DNA from: Scenedesmus sp. PABB004
Lineage: Eukaryota
DNA length: 64,000 nt
Reading direction: 5' to 3'
Assembly: GCA_014905635.1 (NCBI GenBank)
Contig: JABVCE010000007.1
Location: 992,001-1,056,000 of the forward strand
The notes below the pieces were generated by a model. It was not told where the DNA came from, did not search any database, and saw only the letters and a program-made list of their open reading frames with translations. Every line of letters begins with the position of its first letter. Positions within the stretch are counted from its first letter, which is position 1. A program made the translations under genes and the position numbers. Below, piece after piece: positions 6,938 through 64,000 of the stretch.

Positions 6938-7301
6938 CGGCAGCAAGGGGGGCAAAAAGGCCGTGGGCTGGCCTGGGCGCGCGTGCTGTGCGGGCCGCAC
7001 GCGCGCGCGGCTGCCCGGCGGCCTGCGAGGCGCCGCGGGCGAGGCGCCCACCAGGCCGCAGGCCGAGGGCAGAGGGAGCGGCGGCCGCTGCTGGTTTTGC
7101 CGCGGAGCGAGCGCCCTCGTGCGGCTGCCCGACGCCCTGCGCCACTCTTCTCCCGCAGGCGCTGCACCAGCGCGGGCCGAGCCTCGCACGGCCCGCCAGC
7201 ACCACCACCGCGGCGCAGGGCCCTCTCCGCGCGCGCTCGCGCCAGGATCGGCGCGGCCCGCTGGTGCCGCCGCTGGGCGAGTCCCTGAGGCGCCACACGC
7301 C
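6938..7301. promoter_or_regulatory. Short bidirectional intergenic region between divergent HRD3 and mTERF genes
   Basis: ATGs at 6937 (-) and 7302 (+) are ~365 bp apart, head to head. Confidence 0.55.
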
Positions 7302-9304
7302 ATGCCCCGGCCGGCCGCCGCGGCGCGGCAGGCGGGCTGCATCGCCCGCCTGCTGGCGTGCGCAGGGGCGGCCCCCTCCGGGCTCCCCGCCGGCGCCAGC
7401 GCCGGCGCACGTGGCGCCAGCGGCCTGTCGGCGGCTGCCGCGGCGCGGCAGGCCGCGGCGGCGCCCGGGGGCGCGGGCATCCCCGGGCGCAGCAGCAGCG
7501 CCGCCCCGGCGTGCGAGCAGGGCCACTGGGACGCCGGCGTGCTGGAGGGGCACAACTTCGTGCTGTGGCAGCAGGTGGCCGGCCTGAGCGCCGCGCAGGC
7601 GCGCGCGCTGCTGGCGGACGAGGCGCCGGCGCTGGCGGCATTCCTCGCGCCGGGCACGTTCAGCGCGGCCGCGCTCGCGCGCAACACGCACGCCCTGCGC
7701 GCCCTGGGCTGCCTCGGCGGCGCGGAGCTGCCGCCGCGGCTGCGCGGCGTGCTCGCGCTCGCGCCGCCGCGCGCAGTGGAGCAGGCGCTCGCGGCGCGGC
7801 GCCTCGCGGCGCAGCCGGGCGCGCCCGCGCCGGCGGCGGCGCTCGCGGAGCACCTGCAGGCGCTCATGTCGCAGGCGGGGCGGCGGCAGCTGTCGCCGCA
7901 GCGGGCGCAGGCGGCGCAGGTCGCGCAGCTGCTGCCGCTGCTGCGCGCGCGCGCCGAGCAGCAGCGCCAGCCGGCGCCCGGCGCCGCGGCGCAGGGCGGC
8001 CGCGACGCGCCGTGGGAGGCAGTGGCGCTGGCGGTGATGCGCGGCCTCGGCCTCGTGGCGCAAGAGGGCGCCGCGCCGCGCGCCGCGCCGGCCAGCGCCG
8101 GCGACACGGGCGGCAGCCCCACCGCCGCGTGGGCGGGCGGCGCCGCGGGCGCGCAGCTGGCGCCGGCGGCGGCACAGCAGCAGCAGCAGCAGCAGCAGCG
8201 CGCCTACACCACGGCGGCGCAGCAGCAGGTCGCGGCGTCGCAGCTGGGCGGCGGTGGCGCCGCGCTGGCGGCCGCGCTGCGGCGCACCGCGCGCAGCGTC
8301 GCGTACCGGCGCCGGCCCGAGCCCGAGCCCGGCGCGGCGCAGAGCCTCGCGGCGACGCTGCTCGACCACACCGGCATGGCGCCGGGCGAGGTGCTCGGCC
8401 TGCTGACGGCGCGGCCGTCCGTGCTGTGGGCGGGGCGGCAGCCCGGCGCGCTGCGCGCGCTCACCGACGCGCTCGGCCCCCACCTGGGCCCCGACGCCAT
8501 CCGCGGCCTGCTGCGCCGCTGCCCCGGGCTGCTCGCGTGCCCCGAGGAGGCGGCGGCCGCCGCGCTCGACCTGCTGCTGCGCCGGCTGCGCCTGAGCCCG
8601 GAGCAGGCGGCGGGCACGGTGCTGCGCCACCCGCGGCTGCTGCTCGCCCCGAGGGCGGCATGCTCAACGCGTGCGCGTTCCTGGTCGGCCAGGGCGTGTC
8701 GGCGCGCGACCTCGCGGCCATGGCCGCCGCCAGCCCCGCCTGGCTCACGCGGCCGCTGCCGGAGCTCACGGCGCAGTGGGCGTTCCTGACCGGCTCCGCC
8801 AAGGTGGGCGCCGGCGGCGGCGCGCACGCCCGGCGGCCGCGCCCGCACTCACAGGGCGCGCCCGCGAGCTCACACACGCACACACACCGCCGCCCGCCCC
8901 GCGCCCGCGCGCCTCGACAGGCGTCGCTGCAGGATGTGGTCATGCTGCCCGCGCTGCTGAGCCTGCCGGTCGCCAGCGTGCTCGGGCCGCGGCTGAGCTA
9001 CGCGCGGAAGCGCCAGGTCAAGCTGCTGCTGCCAAGCCACGCGGCGCTGCTGCCGCCGCTGCCGCAGCAGCAGTGGCAGCAGCACCGGCTCGCGCCGCTC
9101 GAGTTTTGGGTGACCGCCCCGGAGCGCCGCATGTGCGCCGCGCTGGGCCTCGCGCACGACGACTTCACGAGGTGCGGAGGCGCGCGCGCGCCCGTGGCGG
9201 TCGCCAGCGCGCCGCGCCGCCGCGCCTCACGCGGCGCGCCCCGCGCCGACCGCAGGTTCAAGGCCGCCTGGGCGCGCGTGGACGCCGCGAGCCTGAGCTG
9301 CTGA
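7302..9304 (+). CDS. mTERF-family organellar protein; multi-exon
   Basis: Repeats such as AIRGLLRRCPGLLACP, AAGTVLRHPRLLLAP, AMAAASPAWLTRP, DVVMLPALLSLPVASVLGPRLSY match mTERF modules; Arg/Ala-rich transit-like N-terminus; TGTAA at 9383-9387. Confidence 0.75.
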
Positions 9305-9995
9305 TGCGCCGCGACTCCGCCCCGCTCAAGCCGGGGCTGACGCGTGATAGGTCCGGGGGCGCTGCAGGTGGTGTTGATGCTCTGTAAATTCCCGCGCGCG
9401 CGCCCGGCAGCCGCGAGCGAGCGCAGCCATGCGGCCAGCCGGCTCGCTCGCTGAGCGCACCGGGCGGCCCGCCGGCGGGCGCCCAGCGGTCAGTGCGGTC
9501 AGCGGCTGCAGCGCGCGGCCGCACGCGCGGTCGGCGGCCGGGCGCCGCGCACGTGCCTCGCACACCCGTGCACATTGCGCCCTGCAGCCACGCCGCGCGC
9601 GGCAGCCGGCGAGCGCGCCGTCGCCCGCGCAGCTCCGCTGCGCCGCTGAAGCGCCCGCCGCTGACGGCGAGCCTCCCGACCCCCCGGCCGGCGTGAGTCG
9701 GCGCTCCGGCCGCGCGTTCCGTCCCTCCCAGCGCCGCGGCCGCTGAGCGCCCGGGCCGCACGAGCGGCAAAAGGTGGGCGCTGCGGGCTGCTAGGCGCCG
9801 AGGCGCGCTCGCGAACGCTTTCTGGGTCTGCTTCGAAGCTCACGAGCTGAGCGGCGGAGCCGCAGCCCCCCGCCCGCCGGGCGCCGCTGCGCGCTGCTAC
9901 CCGGCCCACGCCGGCCGCCGCCGCGCCGCGGCCGCCTGCGCTCACCGTGCGCGCCCCCGCCTGCCGGCGCGCAGGCCCCGGCAGCAGCGGCGGCG

Positions 9996-11446
9996 ATGGC
10001 GCTCCGCCTCGCGTGCCGCGCCGGCGCGCGGCCCGTGCTGCGCGTCTCGCCGCCGGCGGCCAGGCGCGTGCGCGGCGCCTTCCGTGGTGTGGCGCCGCCG
10101 AGGACCAGCCATGTCCAGCCGCAGGCGGCCAGCCTCGCCTCGGCCCTGCCGCCACCCGCTCAGCGCGCGCGCCAGCCTTGCCCGCCGGCGGACGTCTTCA
10201 TTGAGGGCAGGCTGTGCGCCGAGCTGGTGGGCCTGGAGCAGCTGCTGGAGCGCATGCGGGTGCGCGCCCCCGCTTGGGTGCACGGCGCGCGCGCGAGCCG
10301 CGCTGCGCCTGCCTCGTCCGACAACGCGGCTGCGCTGGCGCCGCGCAGGCGGCCGGCGCGGCGTTTTGCAGCGCGTTCACCACGCGCGGGGCAGCCAGCG
10401 CCGGCGGGGTCCAGGTCCAGCGCGTGGCCCTGGTCGAGGGCGGCCAGCTCGTGCACGGCAGCAAGGACGCGACGCTGGACGCGCTGAGCAGGGCCTGTGG
10501 CGGTCACCCGGGGCTGTACCTGTGCGTGCTGCGCGGCGCGGGCAACGCCACCGCCGTGTACCACGGCACGTCGGGCAACCTCCTGGACCGCCTGTCCGGC
10601 TACCTGCACGTCGCGCCGGACGGGCACAGCGTGCTGGGCTTTGGCGACAAGGGCACGGCGGACAAGTACAACCAGATGCAGGACGTGCTGCTGCGCAACA
10701 GGCTGGCGCTGGACCTCTGGTGAGCGCCGCGCGGCGTGGGTCCGGCGCGCGGTGGGCGCCTGCGCCGGCGGCAGCTGACACCGCCCCGCGCGCCGCCGGC
10801 CGCTGCTCGCCTGCCGCAGGGTCGCGCCCATGCCCGGCGCCGGCGAGGGCGCCGCGGCGGCCGAGGCGGCGCTGCTGCGACGCTTTGACTTCGCATACAA
10901 CAGTGCAAGCAACGGCGGCCTGCGCGACATCGACCTGGCGGGCCGCGGCCAGTCCAAGCTCATGCTGCCGGTCGACGTCAGTGCGCTCGAGGTGGAGGCG
11001 GCGCTCGCAGTCGCGCTGCGCGGCAAGCGCCTCAACCGGCTGAAGGTGCTCTGCCTGCGCATGGGCATGAAGGTGCCCTCGGCCGCGCCCAAGCGCGAGG
11101 TCATGGTGCGACGGCGGGCGGCCTGGGCGCGCAGCGCGGCGGGGGCAGCGCCCTGCTCGCCGCGCTGCTGCGCCGCCGCTCACCCCAGCGCCGCCGCCGC
11201 TGCCTGCGCGCGCGCGCCCAGGCCCTGCTCGAGTCGCGCGTGATGGAGGCCGCCGGCGGCGACGCGCGCCGCGCGCCGGTGGTGGCGGCTGCTGAGCTGC
11301 AGAGCTGGGACCTGTGGCCGCCGGGCTTCCACGAGGGAGCCTACAAGTATGAGCTGGAGGAGTACTGCCGCGAGCACCACCTGGACTGCAGCGGCCGCAA
11401 GAAGGACCTGCGCGCGCGCGTGGCGGAGCACGTCGCGCGCCGCTGA
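9996..11446 (+). CDS. GIY-YIG nuclease-domain protein (EFFECTOR OF TRANSCRIPTION-like) with C-terminal SAP-like domain(s), copy 1; exons 9996-10259, 10349-10719, 10820-11105, 11222-11446
   Basis: GT-AG splicing keeps the frame; motifs PGLYLCVL...VYHGTSGNLLDRLSGY and LWVAPM...AAEAALLRRFDFAYNSASNGGLR resemble the plant ET GIY-YIG domain; C-terminal YKYELEEYCREHHLDCSGRKKDLRARV fits the SAP consensus. Confidence 0.75.
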
Positions 11447-12303
11447 GCGCGGCGGGGTGCGCGGTCGCCGGACCCGCGGCGCTGCGCGGCGCGCGCGGCG
11501 CGCGTCTTGGGCGTGAGTGTGACGCGGCAGTGTTGATGGCTGCAAGTGCGGCCGGCGCGGCGGGAGGTCGGGATCGGTGCAGCAGGAGCTCGGGGTGCGC
11601 GGAGCGCCATCGCGTGCGCGCGCCCAGAAAGAAGCCAGCCGCGCATGCCGCTGGCGGTGCCGGGCGTTGTGCAACGGGCGGGCTGGTAATCATCAGTTGC
11701 TGGTTGCGCTTGACGCACGCCCACGCGGGCTAAGAGCGGCCGGGCTTGCCGCGCGCGCCGTCGGGCGGCGGCGCCGGCGGCGGCGGCGACGGCGGCGGCG
11801 GCGGCGGCGGAGTTGGCACCACCGCGCGTGCCTCGCAGACCCGTGTGCGCGCCCTGCAGCCACGCGCGCCAGCCAGCGAGCGCGCCCGCGGCCGCGCAGC
11901 TCCGCTGCACCGCCGAAGGGCCAGCCGCTGACGGCGGGCCCCCCGACCCTTCGCGAGTCGTGAGTTGCGCTTGGGACGTGGTTTCCGTCCCTCCGGCCCA
12001 GCGCCACGGCCTCAGCGCCTTCGCAGCGAGCGGGAGCGGCGAAAGTGTCGCCGCGGCAAAAGGTGGGTGCTGCGGGCTGCTAGGCGCCGGGGCGCGCTCG
12101 CTACCGCTTCCTGGATCTTCTTAGAAGCTTTTGGGCTGCGTGGCGAAGGCGCAGCCCCCGCGCCCGCTGGCCGTCGCCGCTGCGCGGGCGTGCCGCTCCC
12201 ACGCCCGCGCCGGCCGCCGCCGCGCTGCGCCGCGGCCGCCTGCGCTCACCGTGCGCGCCCCCCACCTGCCGGCGCGTGCGCAGGCCCGCATGCTGCGGCG
12301 GCG

Positions 12304-13344
12304 ATGGCGCTCCGCAGCCTGGCGCGCGCGGCGGCGCTGGTGCCAGCCGGGCACGTGAGCGCGCTCTGGCGCGGAGCAGTGCCGGCGCGCGGCGGAGCCC
12401 CGGCGCGCTGGGGCCTGCACCGGCAGTATGTGAAGCCGCCCCTACTTGCTGGCGGCGAGCCAGCGGGCGGTCAGCCTTACATCAAGGGCAGGCTGCCGGC
12501 CGAGCAGCTGCACCTAGAGGAGCTGATGAAGCACCTGCAGGTGCGCGTCCGCGCGGGTGCAGGGTGCGCTGCGACTGCTCTTGTCCCACGCGGCAGCTGC
12601 GCTGTCACCGCGCAGGGCATTGTGGTTTCCAGCGCTGCGCCTGGTCTCGTCCCACGCACCCCCTACATTCTCAACGCGCAGGGCGAGCCGGTTTGCAGCG
12701 CGTTCGCCGTGCGCGGGGCAGCCAGCGGGGTTGAGGTCTACCGCGTGGCCGTGTTGGAGGGCGCCGAGCTCGTGCACGGCAGCAAGGACGCGACGATGGA
12801 CGCGCTGCGCGAGGCCTGCGGCGGCCACCCGGGGCTCTACGTCTGGGTGCTGCACAACGCCGAGGGCAAAGCTGCGGCCAGTTACCTCGGCAGGGCAGGC
12901 AACATTTACAAGCGCAACACGGGCTACGTGCACGCCGCACCGAACGGGCACAGCGTGCTGGGCTTTGGCGACAAGAAGACGCAGGGCAAGTACAAGACGA
13001 TGGAAAACGCGCTGGACAACAAGCTGTCGCTGGACCTCTGGTGAGCGCCGCGCGGCGTGGGTCCGGCGCGCGGTGAGCGCCTGCGGTCGGCCGCGCGCCG
13101 GCGGCGGCAGCTGACACTGCCGCGCGCGCTGGCTGCCGCTCCCTTGCACAGGCTCATGCCCATGCGCGGCGCGAGCGTGCAGGCCGTCAAGCAGGCTGAG
13201 GAGGAGGGGCTGCGGGGGCTTGATTTTGCGCTCAACACCGTGCACAACACTGGCAGGCGGCCCATCAGCCTGGTCAACCAATGGCCCTCCGAGTATTTCA
13301 TGCAAGTTGGCCGGCTCGACAGCACGCGGTGGCGGGGCCGCTGA
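12304..13344 (+). CDS. GIY-YIG nuclease-domain protein (ET-like), copy 2, no SAP domain; exons 12304-12540, 12616 (or 12682)-13040, 13152-13344
   Basis: Paralog of copy 1: PGLYVWVL...SYLGRAGNIYKRNTGY, LWLMPM...QAEEEGLRGLDFALNTVHNTGRR; same intron positions. Confidence 0.72.
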
Positions 13345-14009
13345 GCGCGTGCGGCGGCTGAGCATGCGGCCCTGCGCGGCGCGGTGGGGTGGCGCAGCTT
13401 GCGGGTGGGGGCGGCGCGGCTTTGAGGCGGCGCGGCTGCGTCGATGGCTGCGTTGACGGCGCCGGCACGGCGCGGGAGGTCGGGATCGGTCCAGCAGCCC
13501 CGGGCGGGTTGGCGCGCCATTGCACTCACAAGAATAAACCAGCCGCGCATGCCGCTGGCGGCGCCGGCTGCCCTGTGGCGGCCGCGCCGGCTGCTCTGTG
13601 GCGGCCGGGCCGTGTGACGTGATTAGTCATGCGCTCGGTCGGCCGCGCGTGTGACGAGGCCGATCGGGCGGGCGGACGCACAACAGGCACCGTCAGCAGC
13701 AAGTCCGGCCATTTTTCACAAGCTCCCAAGCCCTGCAGGCTGGCGCCGCAGCGCGCACGACCGCCGAACGCGGCCGCCCACGCGCGGGGTGCCAGCGGCC
13801 GGGCTGGCCGCGCGCTGTCCAGGCTGCAGCGGCGCGCTCACAGCACACCGCTCGCCCGACTGCCGGCCAGCGCCGCGCGCGCCCAGACCCGCGGCGGCAC
13901 GCGGGCGCGTCCAAGACCGCGGCGTTTTACCGCGCCGCCGCGCGGCCGTGTGCGAGTTCCGCGATCTCTGCCGCGCTCCGTCGACGTTTTCATACCACGC
14001 CCCAGCATC

Positions 14010-15452
14010 ATGGCGCGCCTCACCGCGCTGCTCGCGCTCCTGCTGGTCGCAGCGCGCGGCAGCGGCGCCGCCGATGCCGGCGCCGCCCCCGCCTCCGCCT
14101 GGCTCGCGTCGACGCGCGCGGCGGGCCACGCCCAGGACGCGCTGTCCCAGACGGTCGCGGCCTTCATGGGCGGCCGGCCGACCGCCGGCGGCGCCGCCGG
14201 CAGCGGCAGCGGCAGCGGCGCGGCCGCGGGCCTGCTCCACGCGCCCAAGCTGATCCAGGCCGCGCTGCAGGGAGCCCTCGCTCCAAGTGACCACGCAGAC
14301 GGCGGCCTGCACAGCGTGCTCGAGGGCTCCGCCGCGCTCGCGCCCGCGGCGGCGCAGCTCGCGAGCAGCCTGCTGGTCAACGAGCTCGCCACGCCCGGCG
14401 CGCGCGCGGTGGAGCGGCTGCAGCAGCTCGGCCAGATCGCGCTTGACCTGCAGGGCCAGGCCGAGTGAGCCCCGCGCGCGCGCCCGTGGGCCCTGCGGGA
14501 GGGAGCCCGCGCGCGGCCACCCGCCATCATCGCCCCCCCCCCCCCCACACGCGCGCCGCGGGCCCGCCGCCGCCCTGCGCAGGGCGTGCGGGGCGTACAC
14601 CTTCACTCCCGGCGGCGCGCGCGTGAACGCCAAGTGGACGGGCCCCACCTTCACGCTCACCGCGGCGACCGGCGCGTGCGAGGTGCTGCCGTCCCTCACC
14701 GGCGCGGGCAACACGCGCTGGACGCAGGCGCAGACCGTGCTCTCCTGCACCGCGCCCGCCGTGTCGTGGGCGTGGACGCCGCTGTCCTACGCCGGCGCCT
14801 CGCGCGAGCTCACCGAGCTCACGGGCCCCAAGTGCGCGCCCGAGGTGACGCTGGGGTCGCCGGTCGAGGTGACGCTCTACGGCGGCGAGCCGGGGCTCAA
14901 GTTTGACAGCGAGAAGGACTTTTACGCCGCGGTGACGCTCAACAAGACCTTTGACTTCAGCACCCGCGAGCTGCGGTGCGGCGGGGTCGCGAGCGCCGCG
15001 GCGCGGCGCACGGCGGCTGCGCGCGGCGGGGCGGCTGCCGCGTGGCGCGGAGCGGCAGCCGCGCGCGACCGACCGCCGCGCCGCGCCGCGTGGCCGCAGG
15101 GCGGCGGCGGCGAGCCTGCAGGCGAAGCTCGACGCGGGGCAGCTCAAGCTCGAGGAGCTGCTCGCCGCCGCGGCGCCCGACGGCGACGCCGCGGTCATCC
15201 TGCCCGCGCCCGCGCAGCTGCACGAGCGGCTGCTGGCGGGCGCCGGCGCGGCCAAGGCCGCGGCCGGCGATGCCGCAGCCCAGCTGCTGGCCGAGCTGTC
15301 CAAGGGTGCGCGCGCGCGCGCGCGGTGCCGGCGGCGCCGCGCCCAGTGGGACGCCTCCCCTGACCGGGACCTCGGCCCGCCCCCCGCCGCCCGCAGGCGC
15401 CCTGGCCAAGGGCGTCGGGCGCAGCATGTTTGCCAAGCGGGCCTGGGCGTGA
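14010..15452 (+). CDS. Secreted protein of unknown function; multi-exon
   Basis: Signal peptide MARLTALLALLLVAARGSG; introns from 14465 (GTGAGC) and 14976 (GTGCGG); beta-rich Cys-containing exon ACGAYTFTPGG...KWTGPTFTLTAATGACEV...FDFST. Confidence 0.65.
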
Positions 15453-15909
15453 GGTGACTGGCAGCAGGGCAGGGCGGAGCACAGGCGGGTGATCAGGGCG
15501 CGGAGGGCGGGCGTTCGGAGCAGGGCGCGGGCTGGGCACAATTGCAGTTGGGCGGCGGCGCGTGATCCAGCTGCGGTTGGAATGAAAGCGAATGGAAGCG
15601 AAGCGAGCGCGAGCGGAGGGAGGAGCGACGCGGAGCGGCTCGCACCGACGTGAGCGCTTCCACCGCGCCGCCGGGCGGCTCCGGCGATCGCCGCCGCCCC
15701 GCGCACGCACAGGCGCGCGCAGCCCCCTCCCTCGCTGCCGCCCCTGCCCGCCCTCCTCGCCCGCCCCCGCCCCCGCCGCGCCCCTCGGCGCCGCCGCCGC
15801 GCCAGCCCCGCCACCCCGCCGCGCCAGCCCCGCCACCCCGCCGCGCCAGCCCCGCCACCCCGCTTCGCCAGCCCGCCGCCCCGCCGCACAACGCCGTCAC
15901 TCGGCGCCG

Positions 15910-54485: not shown

Positions 54486-55402
54486 CGCGGCGCAGGGCAG
54501 GGCGAGGCCCAGCGCCAGCCAGGCGGCGGTACTGGCCCTGGGCGCCCGCCGCTGCGCCCGCAGCGCCTGCAAGGGGGGCAGCAAGGCCGTGGGCTGGCCT
54601 GGGCGTGCTGTGCGGACCGCGCGCGCGCGCGGCTGCCCGGCGGCCTGCGAGGCGCCGCGGGCGAGGCGCCCACCAGGCCGCAGGCCGAAGGCAGAGGGAG
54701 CGGCGGCCGCTGCTGGTTTTGCCGCGGAGCGAGCGCCCTCGTGCAACTGCCCGACGCCCTGCGCCACTCTTCTCCCGCAGGCGCTGCACCAGCGCAGGCC
54801 GAGCCTCGCACGGCCCGCCAGCACCACCACCGGCGCAGGGCCCTCTCCGCGCGCGCTCGCGCCAGGATCGGCGCGGCCCGCTGGTGCCGCCGCTGGGCGA
54901 CTCCCTGAGGCGCCACACGCCATGCCCCGGCCGGCCGCCGCGGCGCGGCAGGCGGGCTGCATCGCCCGCCTGCTGGCGTGCGCAGGGGCGGCCCCCTCCG
55001 GGCTCCCCGCCGGCGCCAGCGACGGCGCACGGGGCGCCAGCGGCCTGTCGGCGGCTGCCGCAGCGCGGCAGGCCGCGGCGGCGCCGGGGGGCGCAGGCTG
55101 GAGGGGCACAACTTCGTGCTGTGGCAGCAGGTGGCCGGCCTGAGCGCCGCGCAGGCGCGCGCGCTGCTGGCGGACGAGGCGCCGGCGCTGGCGGCGTTCC
55201 TCGCGCCGGGCACGTTTCAGCGCGGCCGCGCTCGCGCGCAACACGCACGCCCTGCGCGCCCTGCCTGGGCTGCCTCGGCGGCGCGGAGCTGCCGCCGCGG
55301 CTGCGCGGCGTGCTCGCGCTCGCGCCGCCGCGCGCACTGGAGCAGGCGCTCGCGGCGCGGCGCCTCGCGGCGCAGCCGGGCGCGCCCGCGCCGGCGGCGG
55401 CG
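54486..55402 (+). pseudogene. Decayed direct copy of ~6860-7843 (HRD3 5' end, bidirectional promoter, mTERF 5' end)
   Basis: Colinear high identity with the original; HRD3 ATG changed to CTG; mTERF ATG kept at 54922; ~64-bp deletion, +1 (CACGTTTCAG) and +4 (CCCTGCCTGGGC) indels break the mTERF frame. Confidence 0.92.
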
Positions 55403-55478
55403 CTGCGCGACCTGCGCCGCCTGCGCCCGCTGCGGCGACAGCTGCCGCCGCCACGCCTGCGACATGAGCGCCTGCAGG
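55402..55478 (-). repeat. Inverted copy of mTERF sequence 7853-7929 appended to the duplicate
   Basis: GCTGCGCGACCTGCGCC...GACATGAGCGCCTGCAGG is the reverse complement of 7853-7929 with one mismatch. Confidence 0.9.
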
Positions 55479-55576
55479 CGCCCGCCGTGCAGTAGCGAGG
55501 CGCCCCAGCGAGCCAGGGCGCCGCTGCGGGTGCTGCGCTGTGCGCCTCGCACCCCGCTGCACGCCGCTGCACGCAG

Positions 55577-56477
55577 GGCGCTGCTGGAGCATGGCGTCTT
55601 CATGGAGGGCGTCGTCCTCAAGAGCAACCTGGTGCGCGCGGGCTTGAGAGGGTTTAGCAGCTTGAAAGCTAGGTCTTTGTCGCTCCCGACCTGGCTGCAG
55701 CGTCGCGCCCGCGGGTGCGCAGCCCACTCGCGGCTGCACGCACAGCAGCGCCGCTGCGCCCGCCGTTCAACCCCGGCCGCAGGTCAACCCCGGCAAGGCC
55801 TGCCCCGTGGCTTACACCGTGGACGAGATTGCGCAGGTAGGACAGCGCGGCGGCGGCGCGCCCGAGCCGAGCCCTGCGTGGGCGCCCTGGACGGGGTCCC
55901 CCCTGCTGCGTTGCACGCCGCCGTGCCCGCGCGTCACCTCCTTCTGAACCCCTCCTCTTCCCTGCGCTGCTGCGCGGCGGCGCAGGCCAACATCGACGTC
56001 TTCCGCCGCGTGATGCCCGTGGCGGTGCGCAGCGCCAACTTCTTGTCCGGCGGGCAGAGCCTGGGTGACGCTTGCGCTCGGCTGAGTGCGCTCAACCAGA
56101 AGAAGGGCACGTTCCCTGTCAACCTCTCGTTCAGCTGGTCGGCGGCGCTGCAGGTAAGGCAGCGTGGCGCGTGCGTGCCGTGCCGTGTGGCAAACGGCGA
56201 CGGGCGAGGCGCGGGTTGGGCCAGCCTCGGCCGCGGCTGTGGCGCGCGGGCCCGTTGCGGCGCTGGCATGCGGCGCCGCGCGACGCTGCCGCTCACGCGG
56301 TGCCGCTGCGCTCGCGGCCGCGCGCAGATGCCGCTCTTTGCGCTGTGCCAGGGCTCGCTGAAGCTGCCGGAGATGGAGGCGCTGTACCTGCAGGAGCTGG
56401 CCAAGGCCAGCGCGGCGGCGCGCGGCGAGTACTCGCCGCAGCCGGGCGAGGGCGACCACCGCCCGCCGCGGGCGTGA
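55577..56477 (+). pseudogene. FBA: 5'-truncated class I fructose-bisphosphate aldolase; last four exons (55577-55631, 55783-55836, 55986-56153, 56328-56477)
   Basis: Spliced ALLEHGVFMEGVVLKSNL/VNPGKACP...EIAQ/ANIDVFRRVMPVAV...FLSGGQS...NLSFSWSAALQ/...ASAAARGEY; Schiff-base Lys motif (LKxN) kept; N-terminal exons absent in the window. Confidence 0.85.
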
Positions 56478-57292: not shown

Positions 57293-60200
57293 TCAATCAT
57301 GCCGGCCGAGTTGTGTGCATCTCACAGCAGCCGAGGCTGCCGCCGCTGCCGCCACACTCTGCTGGGCGTCAGACGCGCGAGCCACGCCGGTCTCACTCCT
57401 GTGCCGCAGGCCACCCGTGGCTGCCGCCGGGCAGCGCTCGTGCTGCTCAACATGGCTATCCACTGCAGCGTCCTCGCGCTTACCGTCCCCGGCGGGCAGC
57501 GGCGCCTTGGCTCGCCGGGCGAGCCACCACGCCCGTGCTAGCAGCACACAGCGCACGCCCTCAGGCACGAGCACCACAAACACATCAATGAAGTAACATG
57601 CAATCAGCAACTTTGGAAGTACTGCACTGTCTGGTGCATGCATCAAGCCCGCCGCTGCAGCAAGAATGGCAATCTCACACGAATACGCAATCAAGTCGCA
57701 CGCCAGCATCCAGGGCAGCGCATAGGGCCGCACCAACAGCAGGTACGCAACAAAGCCGACGTGGAGTGCCAGCAGTGCGCCCACCTGGGCGCGGCTGGAC
57801 GCGTAAAAGTGAAACATGCCAAACAAGAGTGCGCTGCCGCAGCGGTGCAGGGCGCTAACCAGGTAGAAAGACAAATACAGCAGCCGCAACCTGGGCAGAG
57901 CGCCGGCCTCCGTGTCGCCGACCACGTCGTCAACAAGGAAGCCGTACGCACGGAAGAAACGCTCCGCGCGCGCCGCCGCAGCATTGCGGACGGCAAGCCC
58001 CTGTTGTGCTGCACGGTCGACGTCTGTTGTTGCATTGTTTGCGGCCGCAAAGGACAAGTGCACGCCGCTGCCCGACGCTGCAGCGCGCGACACGGCGTCC
58101 TCATTGTAGTCGGCAGCATGCCACACACGTGCCATGGCTTCTGCATCGTCGGATGTCAGCTCTGACCCTGTGTAACAACGGCAGTGGGATGCAGTGAGCA
58201 AGCACTAGTATTTGGTGCTGCAGTGCGGCTGCAACGCACCAATATGAGGATTGCTAGCTTCAATTGCCTCACCAGGCAACGACGCCATGCGCAAAAGCAG
58301 TGGGGGCTGCTGGCACCCACCTGCCACATGGCGGGTGCATATGATGTTGCCGGTGCGCAGCTGGCCGGAGTGGCTTTGTGGTCGAGCGGCTGGCAGTGTG
58401 CTGGGGCTGGCCAACTCGTCATCTGAAGCACTGTCCATGGTGTGGTAGTCATTGTCGCCCGGGCTCACTTCGCGCAGAACAAGAGTGGGGTTGTCTTCAC
58501 CACTGCCCAACAAGTCAAGGGTGGCTGGCTTGGCATTCAGCGTTGTGCCTGCACTTTCTTCCCCGTGAAGGTAGAGTCTGGATGTGTTGGTCTTGTTGCG
58601 TGCTTCCGGCTGATCTGTGGAGAACCTCCAAAGAATATAGATCCAGTATATGAGCACTGGCAGCGGCACTAATATTATGCACGCTATGCCTAAGCTGCTG
58701 TGTGTTTTATGTGACGCCACCAACTTGCTCGCACCGTACAGTACTGGGACCATAAGTAGTGTGTGCATCAGCAGTTGGGGCTTGGGGAAGACAAGTAGTC
58801 TGCGTGGCGGCGAGCATTGTTTGCAGCGCTGCCGGCGCGCTGGCAGACGCCGCCCACGCACTGCCCGGCAGTGTAATGGCACACTCACTGTGGGAGGGCT
58901 GAAGGCATCTTGATCAGCCGCCAAACACCTGCTACACCTGCTTGCACAATTGTAATAGCACAAAGCGAAATGGCAAGGGTCAAGCAGGTTATTTGGAGGT
59001 CATGCAAGCCGTACTGTGTTGGTTGGCGAGAGGTCGCTCTTACAGGTACTTCGATGGACACAGTGCTGCCATTGTTGAGTCCGTGCAAGCGCCGGCTGCC
59101 TGCCTGCCTGCGAGCTTCCAAAGCCTCAAGCAGAGACAAACCACACAAGTGGCTCGGTTGCCCCAGTATGCGCCTGGAGTGAGGGCTTCCAAGCTGAGCA
59201 GCCAAAGCAGAAATGTTTGTTGCTGTTGCGAACACTTGTTCAGCAGGCTTGTTTAGATTGGACCAACTGCAGCAAGAGAGCAGGTGGGTGAGCAGCGAGC
59301 AGAAACGGCAAGCGGGCAGGCTTTGGGCAGGCGCACTCACGCTAGGCCCTTGCACAAGCTCAAGTACTCAGCCGGCAACCAAGGGATGGCCAAGCTCACG
59401 GACATGGCAAGAAACTGAGTGTGCCCGACACTTCGTAGCATGCTGCCACCACCACCAGCTGTAGCTGATGACACCGCAGCACTCACCGTTGAAGATGCTG
59501 CGGCAGCGATAGTGACAACTGTTGCAGCACTTGCTGAGCGGTGCCAAACATCAGTCCCAGGCAGGGCAATCTGTCAAGTTGCAGCGGGCGGTGTTAGCGG
59601 AGCCACAACTCAAGCCTAAGCAAAGCCCGAGCAAAGCCCGAGCGACACGCGGCGCGCACCTCAAATTCGTAGTCCGTCCCTGCATTGCCTGCCTGGTCCT
59701 TGTATGCAGCGCCATAGATAGCGATCAAGACCCGTGCTCCTGGCCATGAAGACAACAACATATCATACGCTTGGCCAGTGACCCAACTGGAGTCGTTGGC
59801 CAAGCTGATACCTGACAGTAGCGCATTGGTGATGCCAATGTCAGAAGACGACGTCCAACTTACAGCCTCTGAAAATACAATGCGCGCTTGAATGGATCCG
59901 TCCGCGGCATGAGTAGTGGTAATGTTTGCCACAGTGGGAGCCGACGTATCGAGGTGAACCTGGCGGCGGTTGGCGGCGGTTGGCGTGTGAGCCAGGGCGC
60001 GCGCTGCAAGGCTCGGCGCGCGCGCTATGCGGCAGCGGGCGGCGCCTGCAGGGCCAGCCGGGCGCGCGAATGCTGCCCACCTCGAACGCAGCAGGCGACA
60101 GGTAGGTTTGATTGCCACAAACAGGCCACTCTGCTTGCGCTGGCGTCAGCGCCACCGCAAACTTTCCATCGTAAGGCAACGTGACCAGTAGCTCGCACGT

Positions 60201-63200
60201 GAGTTGGTCCACAGTAGTGCATGGAGCTCTCAAGATGAGCGCCAGGGCGCTGGGCTCTGCACTTGCATCAGGTAGTGCAGTCAGCAACAACCGGCAGTCG
60301 TTGCGGTTCTCACCATCAAGCATTGTTGAAGGACAATATGCTTGATAGATGTCCGGAGATCCAAAATGGACAAGAACGGCAAGGTCTGCTGTGGCTGTTA
60401 CCCCTGGGCTTATCACCGTTGGCGTGATGGCACCAACTTCACAAGCACCATACTGGGGCACAGTAGGCAATGGCGACGGGGACACAGCCGGTGCCGGGTT
60501 GGGCGATGCCGGCTCAGGGCTGGGCGATGGCGGTGGCTCTGGGCTGGGCGACGCCGGCTCTGGGCTGGGCGATGGCGGTGGCTCTGGGCCGGGCGATGGT
60601 GGTGGCTCTGGGCTGGGCGACGGCGATGCAGCCGGCGCCGGGCTGGGCGATGCCGGCTCAGGGCTGGGCGATGGCGGTGGCTCTGGGCTGGGCGACGGCG
60701 ACGCAGCCGGCGCCGGGCTGGGCGATGCCGGCTCTGGGCTGGGCGATGGCGGTGGCTCTGGGCTGGGTGAGGGCAACGCAGCCGGCGCCGGGCTGGGCGA
60801 TGCCGGCTCTGGGCTCGGCGATGGCGGTGGCTCTGGGCTGGGTGAGGGCGACGCAGCCGGCGCCGGGCTGGGCGATGCCGGCTCAGGGCTGGGCGATGGC
60901 GGTGGCTCTGGGCTGGGTGAGGGCAACGCAGCCGGCGCCGGGCTGGGCGATGCCGGCTCAGGGCTGGGCGATGGCGGTGGCTCTGGGCTGGGTGAGGGCA
61001 ACGCAGCCGGCGCCGGGCTGGGCGATGCCGGCTCAGGGCTGGGCGATGGCGGTGGCTCTGGGCTGGGCGACGGCAACGCAGCCGGCGCCGGGCTGGGCGA
61101 TGCCGGCTCAGGGCCGGGCGATGGTGGTGGCTCTGGGCTGGGCGACGGCGACGCAGCCGGCGCCGGGCTGGGCGATGCCGGCTCAGGGCTGGGCGATGGC
61201 GGTGGCTCTGGGCTGGGCGATGGCGGTGGCTCTGGGCTGGGTGAGGGCAACGCAGCCGGCGCCGGGCTGGGCGATGCCGGCTCAGGGCTGGGCGATGGCG
61301 GTGGCTCTGGGCTGGGCGATGGCGGTGGCTCTGGGCTGGGTGAGGGCAACGCAGCCGGCGCCGGGCTGGGCGATGCCGGCTCAGGGCTGGGCGATGGCGG
61401 TGGCCCTGGGCTGGGCGAGGGCTGCACCGTAGGCGATGGTGACGGCGACGGCGACGCAGCCGGCGCGGGGCTGGGCGACGACGGCGCGGGGCTGGGCGAT
61501 GGTGCCAAGAGCACGCAGCCTGCATTTGCTGTGTAGCAAGTCCCCGGCCCCCACTTGACGAAGCACCGAGAAGCAATCCGGCATCCATACTTCGAACTGT
61601 CCGCTTTGCAGCTCGGAGCAGTACAGTTATTGCCGCCAATGGTTGAGTTGGTCGTGCAGCAGAGATCGTTGCTGCATGGTCCCGAGCAAGGGTACGCATT
61701 GACCATTGGGAAAGGGTCACTTGAAGCTGGCGCAGGGCTGGGCGATGGTGATGGGCTGGGCGATGGTGACGGGCTGGGCGATGGAGATGGGCTGGGCGAT
61801 GGCGATGGGCGGGGTGATGGCGATGGGCTGGGCAAAGGTGCGGGGTTTGGCGATGGAGATGGCGATGGGTTGGGCGACGGCGACGGGCTGGACACCGCAG
61901 GTAGCAGCGCTGTCAACTCGTCCACTCCATTGTGCCTCACGCGCAGCGAGAAGTCCCAGTGAAACACAATGACAAGGCGCTCGACACGCGGCCCCGCTTT
62001 GAATTTAAAATCGGTGGGCTCTGGACCATACGTCCACTCACGATAGTGGCCAAGGCGCGCGGCGGGCAGGAAGCTGACTGGGCTGACTTTGTCGCGCCGG
62101 TACCCAGCCACGTTTGCCCCGTCGCTCCAGGTGGGAAATATTTGGTAGTAATCAGAGATGTTGTACGCAGGAACCATGTAATCGCGGTTTATAGCGTTCC
62201 CGTTGGCATCCACGTAGAACCCCTCACAGCCGTATGACCCCGTTCGGGTGTGGGCCATTCGGCCGTTCCCTAGGTCTGCTGCGTCAAGTGTATCAATGCA
62301 GCCAAATGGCATAGCCCAAAAAGCCCAGCCTGGGTTGTAATAGGGCTTTGAGTCAACGCCAATGTAGCTGCTGCCATTGGCGTACGTAGAGGCATATGCA
62401 GGGCCGGTGTTGTTGTTTTGCGAGGGGGTCACTATGTACGGAGCGTCGTACCGGACCAAAGACGCCCAGCGCGACTGGTTGCGCTTTTTATAACTGCCCC
62501 AGTTGTCCCAAGTCTCAATGGACAAAACATCCACTTCCCACGTGGGGCGCAAGCTCTGCCACAGGTCTGCCACCCAAATGATTTGCTCGTCCATTACGTC
62601 AGAGTCGTCCAATGATTTGTAGGGAACATAGTCCAACCCATATGGGTTTGATTTGGGTGATTGATCCCAATACTTCGCGTTGTATGTGGCAGAGATGAGC
62701 GGATGACCAAGGAAGCTCCTGCAACGAATCAAGTGAGCGTGGCAGGCAGCGTACGTGAATTCCGCACGCGGCAAAGCTATTTTGGCGGCTGAGCTGCGCA
62801 AACTCACATGTATGACAGTTTAGGAAGGCCAGTTATCCAAGTTAGCGGTATCGTGCCAAACAATTTGCCATTGCCAGACCAGTCCGTGAAGTCACTGCAT
62901 TCGCGTTGCAAACGGAGGCGTGAGGTGAGGTGATTTTCATGGCGCAACGAGCGACCCCCAACCAACCACCCCAACCACGCACATAATCTCCAAGTTGTGC
63001 AGGGTAGACATATTCGTGTCAGGCTGCACTGTGCCCCAGGCAGCCGGCAGGGTTCCATACACAACTGCTGGCCAGCGGTCCGTTGGCGCAACACCAGCGG
63101 CTTGCAAGTGCGCTTTGAACGGAGCATTGCCTTGCTTGAAGAGCTCGTAGGTGCTGGGGTCCCTAAACAATACGCCCATAGACTGCTGAGGGGTGAAGGT

Positions 63201-63420
63201 AGAATTGTAGCCCAACGCGGTCAAGTTGAGCAAACCGGGCCACTCGGCAGTGGTACCATTGAACGGCATCACGGCTTGCTCTGATGCACGATCCTTCCAA
63301 CCCCACAGCACGTACCTCCCTGCATTCATGCTTTCAGGTACCATCGATGCATCACGCTCCCACTCCTCGGGCACGTCGGCGTCTTCCCAAACAATTGGAA
63401 ACGACAGGTTTCTTATAATT
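57293..63420 (-). CDS. Large membrane-anchored hydroxyproline-rich glycoprotein-like protein: LRR-like segment, Cys-rich module, (Ser-Pro) rod, Ig-like domain, multipass TM region; 5' end beyond the right edge
   Basis: Exons give [19 protein letters not shown]...LPKLSY (LRR-like), long SPSP repeats, [10 protein letters not shown]...ARIVFSEAV...YKDQAGN (bacterial-Ig-like), [30 protein letters not shown] and several hydrophobic helices; TGA at 57293; TGTAA at ~57267-57271. Confidence 0.75.
60470..61500 (-). repeat. Coding minisatellite, ~75-bp unit encoding [25 protein letters not shown]
   Basis: GGGCAACGCAGCCGGCGCCGGGCTG-type blocks recur at 75-bp spacing (e.g. 60771, 60846, 60921, 60996) with 24-bp variants. 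Confidence 0.92.
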
Positions 63421-63432
63421 CTGCGTGCGGCA

Positions 63433-64000
63433 CAGGCGCCGGCGAGCGAGGTGCCGGCGCGCGCACGCCGCCGCCGGCGCGGCGCGCGCTGCGGCTGCAG
63501 CCGCGAGCGGCCGCCTCGCTGGCCAGGCGCCGGCGAGCGAGGTGCCGGCGCGCGCACGCCGCCGCCCGCGCGGCGCGCGCTGCGGCTGCAGCCGCGAGCG
63601 GCCGCCTCGCTGGCCAGGCGCCGGCGAGCGAGGTGCCGGCGCGCGCAGGCCGCCGCCCGCGCGGCGCGCGCTGTGGCTGCAGCCGCGAGTGGCCGCCTCG
63701 CTGTCCAGGCGCCGGCGAGCGAGGTGCCGGCGCGCGCAGGCCGCCGCCCGCGCGGCGCGCGCTGCGGCTGCAGCCGCGAGCGGCCGCCTCGCTGGCCAGG
63801 CGCCGGCGAGCGAGGTGCCGGCGCGCGCACGCCGCCGCCCGCGCGGCGCGCGCTGCGGCTGCAGCCGCGAGCGGCCGCCTCGCTGGCCAGGCGCCGGCGA
63901 GCGAGGTGCCGGCGCGCGCAGGCCGCCGCCCGCGCGGCGCGCGCTGCGGCTGCAGCCGCGAGCGGCCGCTTCGCTGGCCAGGCGCCGGCGAGCGAGGTGC
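63433..64000. repeat. Intronic 91-bp GC-rich tandem repeat, more than 6 copies, continuing off the window
   Basis: CAGGCGCCGGCGAGCGAGGTGCCGGCGCGCGCA recurs at 63433, 63524 and onward at 91-bp spacing; starts just upstream (in gene sense) of the acceptor at 63421-63422. Confidence 0.93.

Follow-up and report, generated by a model that had tools for sequence, protein, structure and literature searches.

What kind of protein is encoded at 9996-11446 on the forward strand of a 64,000-nucleotide stretch of Scenedesmus sp. PABB004 DNA (contig JABVCE010000007.1, positions 992,001 to 1,056,000; hereafter the window), and in which compartment would it act? An earlier reading of this locus (the original prediction) had proposed a GIY-YIG nuclease resembling the land-plant EFFECTOR OF TRANSCRIPTION (ET) proteins, fused to SAP-like DNA-binding domains and headed by an organelle-type presequence. 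We favour, with moderate confidence, a putative endonuclease of 381 amino acids that would be a very divergent member of the GIY-YIG superfamily, encoded in the nucleus and tethered to DNA by C-terminal SAP modules. Furthermore, two aspects of the locus had been overlooked, namely a tandem paralog devoid of a SAP domain and the absence of detectable relatives of this family.

The gene, referred to as copy 1, is predicted to consist of four exons:

9996-10259 (+): exon 1 of copy 1, 88 codons; residues 1-65 are rich in Arg, Ala and Pro, and a conserved block (FIEGRL...) starts at residue 68
10260-10348 (+): intron 1 of copy 1, 89 nt, GT..AG; its removal is required for the conserved frame
10349-10719 (+): exon 2 of copy 1, N-terminal half of the putative nuclease domain, with GLY at 10511-10519, VYHG at 10556-10567, Arg169 at 10589-10591 and a GHSVLGFGDK block
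10720-10819 (+): intron 2 of copy 1, 100 nt, GT..AG; a TGA stands in frame at the donor
10820-11105 (+): exon 3 of copy 1, C-terminal half of the putative nuclease domain (Glu227...Asn239, 10860-10901), a linker and helix 1 of SAP-like motif 1
11106-11221 (+): intron 3 of copy 1, 116 nt, GT..AG; it splits SAP-like motif 1, and splicing completes the helix ...KREVM/ALLESRV
11222-11446 (+): exon 4 of copy 1, helix 2 of SAP-like motif 1, a linker, the SAP domain at 11348-11434 and the stop codon at 11444-11446

Joining these exons yields 1146 nt, corresponding to 381 codons and a stop, and the three introns as well as all motif strings quoted in the original prediction were recovered at the same coordinates. 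At a G+C content of approximately 80%, the window contains long open reading frames (ORFs) in all six frames, and the locus might represent a gene-model artefact, i.e., an open frame with chance motifs and without a functional product, all the more as the deposited gene model is itself wrong (see below). Several observations make this very improbable. The coding frame retrieved both a SAP domain above the Pfam cut-off and a match to PF19239 (GIY_YIG_domain), while at E≤0.1 Pfam returned nothing for any of 7 control ORFs (232-450 amino acids, off-frame or antisense) from the same stretch. The G+C content at the three codon positions of copy 1 (0.77/0.53/0.94) shows a periodicity that favours coding, as do the indels between copy 1 and its paralog, 6 of 6 being multiples of three in coding sequence vs 7 of 24 in flanks and introns. 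Moreover, intron positions are conserved in the paralog. Judged by these sequence features, copy 1 is a real four-exon nuclear gene with predicted splice junctions.

The deposited protein HT031_002955 (P0001, Scenedesmus sp. PABB004; 1582 amino acids) is 100% identical over exon 2 and uses the same three copy 1 junctions. It chains an mTERF-like gene, copy 1, part of the paralog and a downstream gene (~7289-15500), omits the last exon of the paralog and is an erroneous four-gene fusion. Since it passes over the in-frame stop codon at 11444-11446, it is a chimeric prediction and does not constitute independent proof of splicing.

The paralog, copy 2, is positioned approximately 2.3 kb downstream of copy 1, and the duplicated unit includes flanking sequence:

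12304-13344 (+): copy 2, tandem paralog with exons 12304-12540, 12682-13040 and 13152-13344; 262 amino acids; Y132, Y147, R157, E215 and N227; without SAP domain
9548-9995 (+): 5' flank or putative 5' untranslated region of copy 1; belongs to the duplication and corresponds collinearly to 11823-12303, the stretch preceding copy 2
11523-11663 (+): 3' flank of copy 1; its homologous counterpart behind copy 2 is 13431-13567 (blastn)

The two proteins share 104 of 198 residues (53%; tblastn E 9e-62), exon 2 of one copy is 64% identical to exon 2 of the other, and introns 1 and 2 have identical positions and phases in both. Blastn aligned 9548-10907 collinearly with 11823-13244, and the 5' flanks (9560-9995 vs 11830-12303) agree at 353 of 427 aligned bases. 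This conserved non-coding 5' piece lacks an in-frame ATG in both copies, which argues for an independent 5' end of each copy and for a separate mTERF-like gene. An upstream start codon was ruled out for either copy on the same exon-like piece, and upstream of 9996 an in-frame ATG is absent after the stop at 9792-9794. The segment of copy 1 coding for the SAP part lies where the copies are not homologous, in a gap that spans 616 bp in copy 1 and 187 bp in copy 2, and the SAP part was either lost by copy 2 or gained by copy 1; neither a second SAP-coding stretch nor a third gene copy was found by tblastn within the window. The first ~45 nt of intron 2 (10720-10764 vs 13041-13085; repeat family D5) are 93% identical between the copies, compared to approximately 80% for the exons; this points to either gene conversion or conservation of an element within the intron. 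The spacer between the copies contains a run of GGC/GGCGGC triplets at 11770-11810.

The assignment of the nuclease part is based primarily on its motifs. The residue set read by the original prediction is present in the spliced product of copy 1, with Y145 in GLY (143-145), Y159 in VYHG (158-161), R169 in DRL, E227 in AEAALL and N239 in FAYN. In copy 2, Y132 lies in GLY (130-132) and Y147 in SYLG (146-149), followed by R157, E215 and N227; the Y/Y/R/E/N set is hence retained in both copies despite their 53% identity. At the sequence level, both show the spacing of GIY-YIG proteins, i.e., GIY and YIG motifs approximately 10-15 residues apart, an Arg 8-10 residues past YIG, then a Glu, and an Asn 12 residues further. 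This Glu-to-Asn spacing equals that in LLLE...RYN of Escherichia coli UvrC, in which we take these residues to be the catalytic ones. A regular expression for the motifs of the N-terminal half, which was composed post hoc after the sequence had been seen, matched only copy 1 and copy 2 among the 127,996 residues of the six-frame translated window, and the full pattern, composed in the same way, was absent from all 20,000 shuffled versions of the copy 1 protein.

Profile and embedding comparisons point in the same direction. PF19239 is the best Pfam match (E 5.9e-4), aligning residues 157-250 with profile positions 66-161 of 163 without large gaps, and exon 3 alone matched positions 132-162 of 163 (E 0.0015, 18.8 bits). 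This family was found in none of E. coli K-12 and 14 control genomes. A weak hhalign match between copy 1, together with exon 2 of copy 2, and residues 1-106 of E. coli UvrC (P 0.031, 33% identity over 40 columns) paired PGLY with PGVY, VYHG with IYVG and DRLSGY with KRLSSY. Among the ESM Atlas neighbours of residues 136-256, 16 of 30 named clusters belonged to the set carrying PF01541 (scores 0.90-0.92), and 2 neighbour clusters carry PF19239 in 93% of their members, the few members with a recorded taxon comprising bacterial, archaeal and eukaryotic records.

A considerable number of results weigh against this assignment and against the favoured reading built on it. With a query of 377 amino acids (the copy 1 protein minus its last 4 residues), PF19239 scored 20.1 bits, 1.3 bits short of the gathering cut-off of 21.4, and nearly all of this score originates from the ~30 residues of exon 3. 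PF01541 did not match the copy 1 protein even at E≤10 in Pfam, and at the same threshold the copy 2 pieces retrieved nothing. No motifs were aligned when the C-terminal half was compared with UvrC by hhalign, and likewise for the protein and E. coli YhbQ; an exon 2 profile did not recover uvrC from the E. coli chromosome, and phmmer retrieved no PDB chain at E≤10. Of shuffled proteins, 4-10% attain the Atlas scores of 0.90-0.92, and the shared-feature counts of the neighbours are low (120-141). AlphaFold2, applied to the 377-residue protein (alignment depth 2) and to exon 2 alone, returned a mean predicted local distance difference test score (pLDDT) of 39 for the nuclease part, a low value because the alignment depth is only 2. 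Finally, comparison of the two copies over the domain gave a ratio of nonsynonymous to synonymous substitution rates (dN/dS) of 1.13-1.19 (pN 0.25-0.28, pS 0.23-0.24), and the exons are no better kept than their surroundings, nucleotide identity being 80% in exon 2, 83% in the 5' flank and 89% in intron 2. Constraint may therefore have relaxed in one copy or both. We do not place copy 1 in PF19239, which is the nearest model only. Taken as a whole, the sequence features nonetheless render membership in the GIY-YIG superfamily probable, and we hold this part of the reading with fairly good confidence. An NCBIfam search of the protein returned nothing, and an exon 2 profile retrieved from PDB only a non-significant match to the C-terminus of glutamate 5-kinase, presumably its PUA domain; the matching block precedes the GIY motif (residues ~105-142, 10400-10510; E 0.73 in PDB, 0.19 against the E. 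coli chromosome).

The substitution pattern raises the question of whether the pair has a cellular function at all. Copy 1 and copy 2 might be decaying or selfish, i.e., a recent lineage-specific orphan duplicate with a possible origin in a mobile element or virus that evolves neutrally or in an arms race, one copy or both having ceased to fill a conserved cellular role. Besides the rates and the silence of Pfam on copy 2, the searches for relatives are in line with this: among 1,835,955,588 representative proteins, phmmer found only HT031_002955 itself, which was also the single hit among 5685 candidates in a word-indexed search of longer proteins, while 0 of 4155 candidates of near length matched residues 95-265 at E≤10. 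Scans of viral contigs and two scans of prokaryote genomes revealed no relatives either, nor did the metagenome scan, in which a JGI metagenome locus (L001) was rejected as a false positive, being in the wrong frame and opposite an apparent bacterial glycyl-tRNA synthetase gene by its peptide reading. The family looks like an orphan at the protein level in the databases searched, illustrating that a conserved-looking enzyme may be beyond placement by sequence search. A parallel exists in Arabidopsis, where ET3, like copy 2, is a tandem partial duplicate (of ET2) that lacks the DNA-binding repeats and is considered a pseudogene in the excerpt of PMC6585611 (papers are cited from excerpts here and below).

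However, both frames are intact, coding indels preserve the frame as described above, and the five catalytic residues are retained. Conservation between the copies is patchy, with 22 of 27 and 12 of 13 residues identical in two blocks, compared to 14 of 31 in the intervening segment. The dN/dS values are moreover inflated, because the extreme G+C content at third codon positions (GC3; 0.94 in copy 1, 0.87 in copy 2) depresses dS. A high-copy transposon was ruled out, with two copies only in the window and one deposited protein spanning both. We therefore regard decay or selfish propagation as improbable and read the rate pattern, as far as sequence comparison allows, as rapid yet constrained evolution.

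For the second half of the favoured reading, a nuclease tethered to DNA, the evidence is firmer. Exon 4 exceeded the Pfam cut-offs for both SAP (PF02037; 26.9 bits, cut-off 23.9) and SAP_new25 (33.3 bits, cut-off 26.3), which bears out the clear C-terminal SAP-like motif of the original prediction and locates it at residues 350-378 (11348-11434). With the 377-residue string, SAP drops to 22.8 bits, while SAP_new25, at 29.0 bits, is still over its cut-off. The AlphaFold2 model is usable only for residues 274-377, in which helix pairs were modelled at 283-292/303-317 (pLDDT 65-79) and 349-358/367-376 (pLDDT 75-85), the rest being poor. Among the matches listed by VIA-align, 5 of 50 were titled SAP or LEM domain. 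The C-terminal SAP domain of copy 1, as judged from its profile matches, is bona fide. The first helix pair coincides with the possible second SAP motif of the original prediction:

11031-11242 (+): SAP-like motif 1, residues 283-314, crossing intron 3

While the modelled helix-loop-helix at 283-317 agrees with this proposal, the motif is invisible to Pfam even at E≤10; on the strength of the model, a second SAP at residues 283-314 is plausible.

A catalytic domain combined with a DNA tether follows a two-part logic that is also found in I-TevI, LEM-3/ANKLE1 and SLX1-SLX4(SAP). By analogy with solved GIY-YIG enzymes, as generally known, Glu227 of copy 1 would hold one divalent metal ion, Tyr145, Tyr159 and Arg169 would contribute to water activation and phosphate stabilisation, and Asn239 might serve as a brace of the fold; one strand would be cut at a time. 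The SAP domain at 350-378, probably together with the second one at 283-314, would bind DNA without sequence specificity and keep the catalytic domain on its substrate. The likeness to UvrC comprises the aligned motifs (PGxY, xYxG, RLSxY) and the Glu-Asn spacing; in contrast, approximately 58 residues separate Arg and Glu in copy 1 vs approximately 37, by our count, in E. coli UvrC, and the remaining parts of UvrC are absent. The combination of a GIY-YIG nuclease with SAP is moderately unusual: no description of a covalent GIY-YIG-SAP fusion was found in the literature, as represented mostly by titles and abstract openings. Such a fusion would be a natural counterpart to the designs of SLX1-SLX4(SAP) and LEM-3/ANKLE1, and it bears on function in that the biological role of a GIY-YIG nuclease is set by the attached DNA-binding module.

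These comparisons also bear on the compartment. In LEM-3/ANKLE1, ankyrin repeats are followed by a LEM-like domain and a GIY-YIG nuclease, and the LEM-like domain, which is able to bind DNA by itself, is required for activity (PMC11975286, excerpt). Copy 1 resembles this arrangement in uniting, in one polypeptide, a putative GIY-YIG domain and a helix-extension-helix DNA-binding module of the LEM/SAP class, but the order is reversed, with the nuclease first and SAP last, and the module is SAP rather than LEM. SLX1 is a GIY-YIG nuclease activated by a partner, SLX4, that carries a SAP domain (PMC11975286); nuclease and SAP domain reside on two polypeptides, and SLX1 additionally contains a RING-type domain, whereas in copy 1 the two parts are fused and no RING was found. 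In ET proteins, the GIY-YIG domain is accompanied by C-terminal Cys/His ET repeats that bind zinc and DNA, and the proteins are nuclear (PMC6585611).

With such enzymes as models, copy 1 could be a nuclear structure-specific or repair nuclease of the LEM-3/ANKLE1 or SLX1-SLX4 kind, or an ET-like nicking regulator, with the N-terminus being a disordered tail driven by G+C content. Consistent with this, pairings of GIY-YIG domains with SAP or LEM modules are known in nuclear or cytoplasmic enzymes whose substrate is chromosomal DNA (PMC11975286), and presequence-like composition is common in this genome. However, searches of the copy 1 protein against Pfam at E≤10 revealed no ankyrin, LEM, RING, ET-repeat or zinc-finger family, and its C-terminal 140 residues contain 3 Cys only. 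Orthology to nuclear nuclease families was not detectable in the protein searches, and neither was a sequence relationship to LEM-3/ANKLE1. In addition, the amphipathic periodicity of the copy 1 N-terminus lies in the top 4% of the background. We consider a nuclear site of action rather unlikely. Regarding the ET-like label of the original prediction, the SAP domain does stand in the place of ET repeats; membership in the ET family did not hold up, because the Cys/His repeats are absent. The sole measurable basis of this label is the sub-threshold PF19239 match, the WAPM...FDYAWN..SNG signature having been put forward by the original prediction.

Alternatively, the putative SAP-tethered nuclease might be imported into an organelle, as the original prediction had suggested. 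Its first acidic residue is at position 66, 11 of the first 60 residues are basic, Arg occurs at positions 4, 8, 12 and 16, and the hydrophobic moment of 0.65 ranks within the top 4% when set against 160 ORFs of the window that start with ATG. Copy 2 begins with MALR and has its first acidic residue at position 52, with a moment of 0.35, which is under the background median of 0.39. Of the features of a presequence (rich in Arg, Ala and Ser, free of acidic residues, amphipathic), copy 1 thus fits all and copy 2 fits in composition only. Furthermore, the copies differ most from each other at the N-terminus (dN ~1.0), and targeting peptides are usually poorly conserved. However, an acid-free stretch of 60 residues at the N-terminus was also found in 40 of the 160 ORFs (25%), mostly non-genes, and 29 of the 160 combine this with 8 or more basic residues; composition is therefore a weak argument in this genome, and presequence-like composition has little diagnostic value at 80% G+C. 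While the Arg-rich, acid-free N-terminus described by the original prediction is present and compatible with import, its composition is unspecific.

Precedents exist in chlorophytes for each domain in the plastid. CreCNS combines a transit peptide with four SAP domains and is located on chloroplast nucleoids (PMC4758235, excerpt), and Cre16.g671950 (PMC5700999, excerpt) as well as CrNFU1 and GRX6 (PMC8003979, excerpt) are predicted plastid GIY-YIG proteins of Chlamydomonas. Each of these green algal proteins carries SAP or GIY-YIG, but none is reported in these excerpts to have both, and no similarity of copy 1 to any of the four was found in the protein database searches. ANKLE1 has been reported to cut mitochondrial DNA (PMC9977882, excerpt).

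A further point in favour of import is the upstream neighbour, which the original prediction had named as an mTERF gene:

7289-9304 (+): last part of the putative mTERF-like gene; ORF with its stop codon at 9302-9304; Pfam mTERF E 0.0013, 18.1 bits (cut-off 23.1), at residues 438-517 of HT031_002955

An mTERF-like ORF does end shortly upstream of copy 1, yet its mTERF match is sub-threshold, and gene neighbourhood is of little weight in eukaryotes. It should also be noted that SAP proteins are, as generally known, mostly nuclear. From these sequence features, import of copy 1 into the mitochondrion or plastid is a tentative proposal; there, after removal of a cleavable presequence of ~65 residues, it would work on nucleoids in repair, the processing of recombination intermediates or DNA turnover, and would add one more nuclease to the short list of green algal nucleoid-associated enzymes.

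An extension of this proposal concerns both copies: as a pair of organelle-imported, fast-evolving nucleases, the SAP-bearing copy would nick or degrade nucleoid DNA in copy-number control, clearance of damaged genomes or uniparental elimination, and the SAP-less copy would act as its partner or modulator. We consider this scenario speculative and improbable. If true, it would provide a molecular candidate for the organelle-DNA-degrading activities of chlorophytes, for which the genes are poorly known.

Elsewhere in the window, an ORF at 54909-56477 (+) begins with ~40 residues nearly as the ORF at 7289 and continues with a stretch (EGHNFVLWQQVAGLSAAQARALLADEAP...) that serves as the mTERF-like N-terminal part in HT031_002955. 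Its sequence points to a segmental duplication of the 5' part of the mTERF-like gene within the window; no GIY-YIG copy lies beside it. On the opposite strand, 59841-62819 (-) is an open frame of 992 amino acids in which a very long (Ser-Pro)n repeat region separates two Cys- and Tyr-rich globular ends; by its sequence, the product looks like a hydroxyproline-rich cell-wall glycoprotein. This frame lies in the only part of the window with a lower G+C content (0.57-0.70). Tandem repeats of ~190 nt, seen as repeated peptides in several frames, occupy the right end of the window (~63300-64000).

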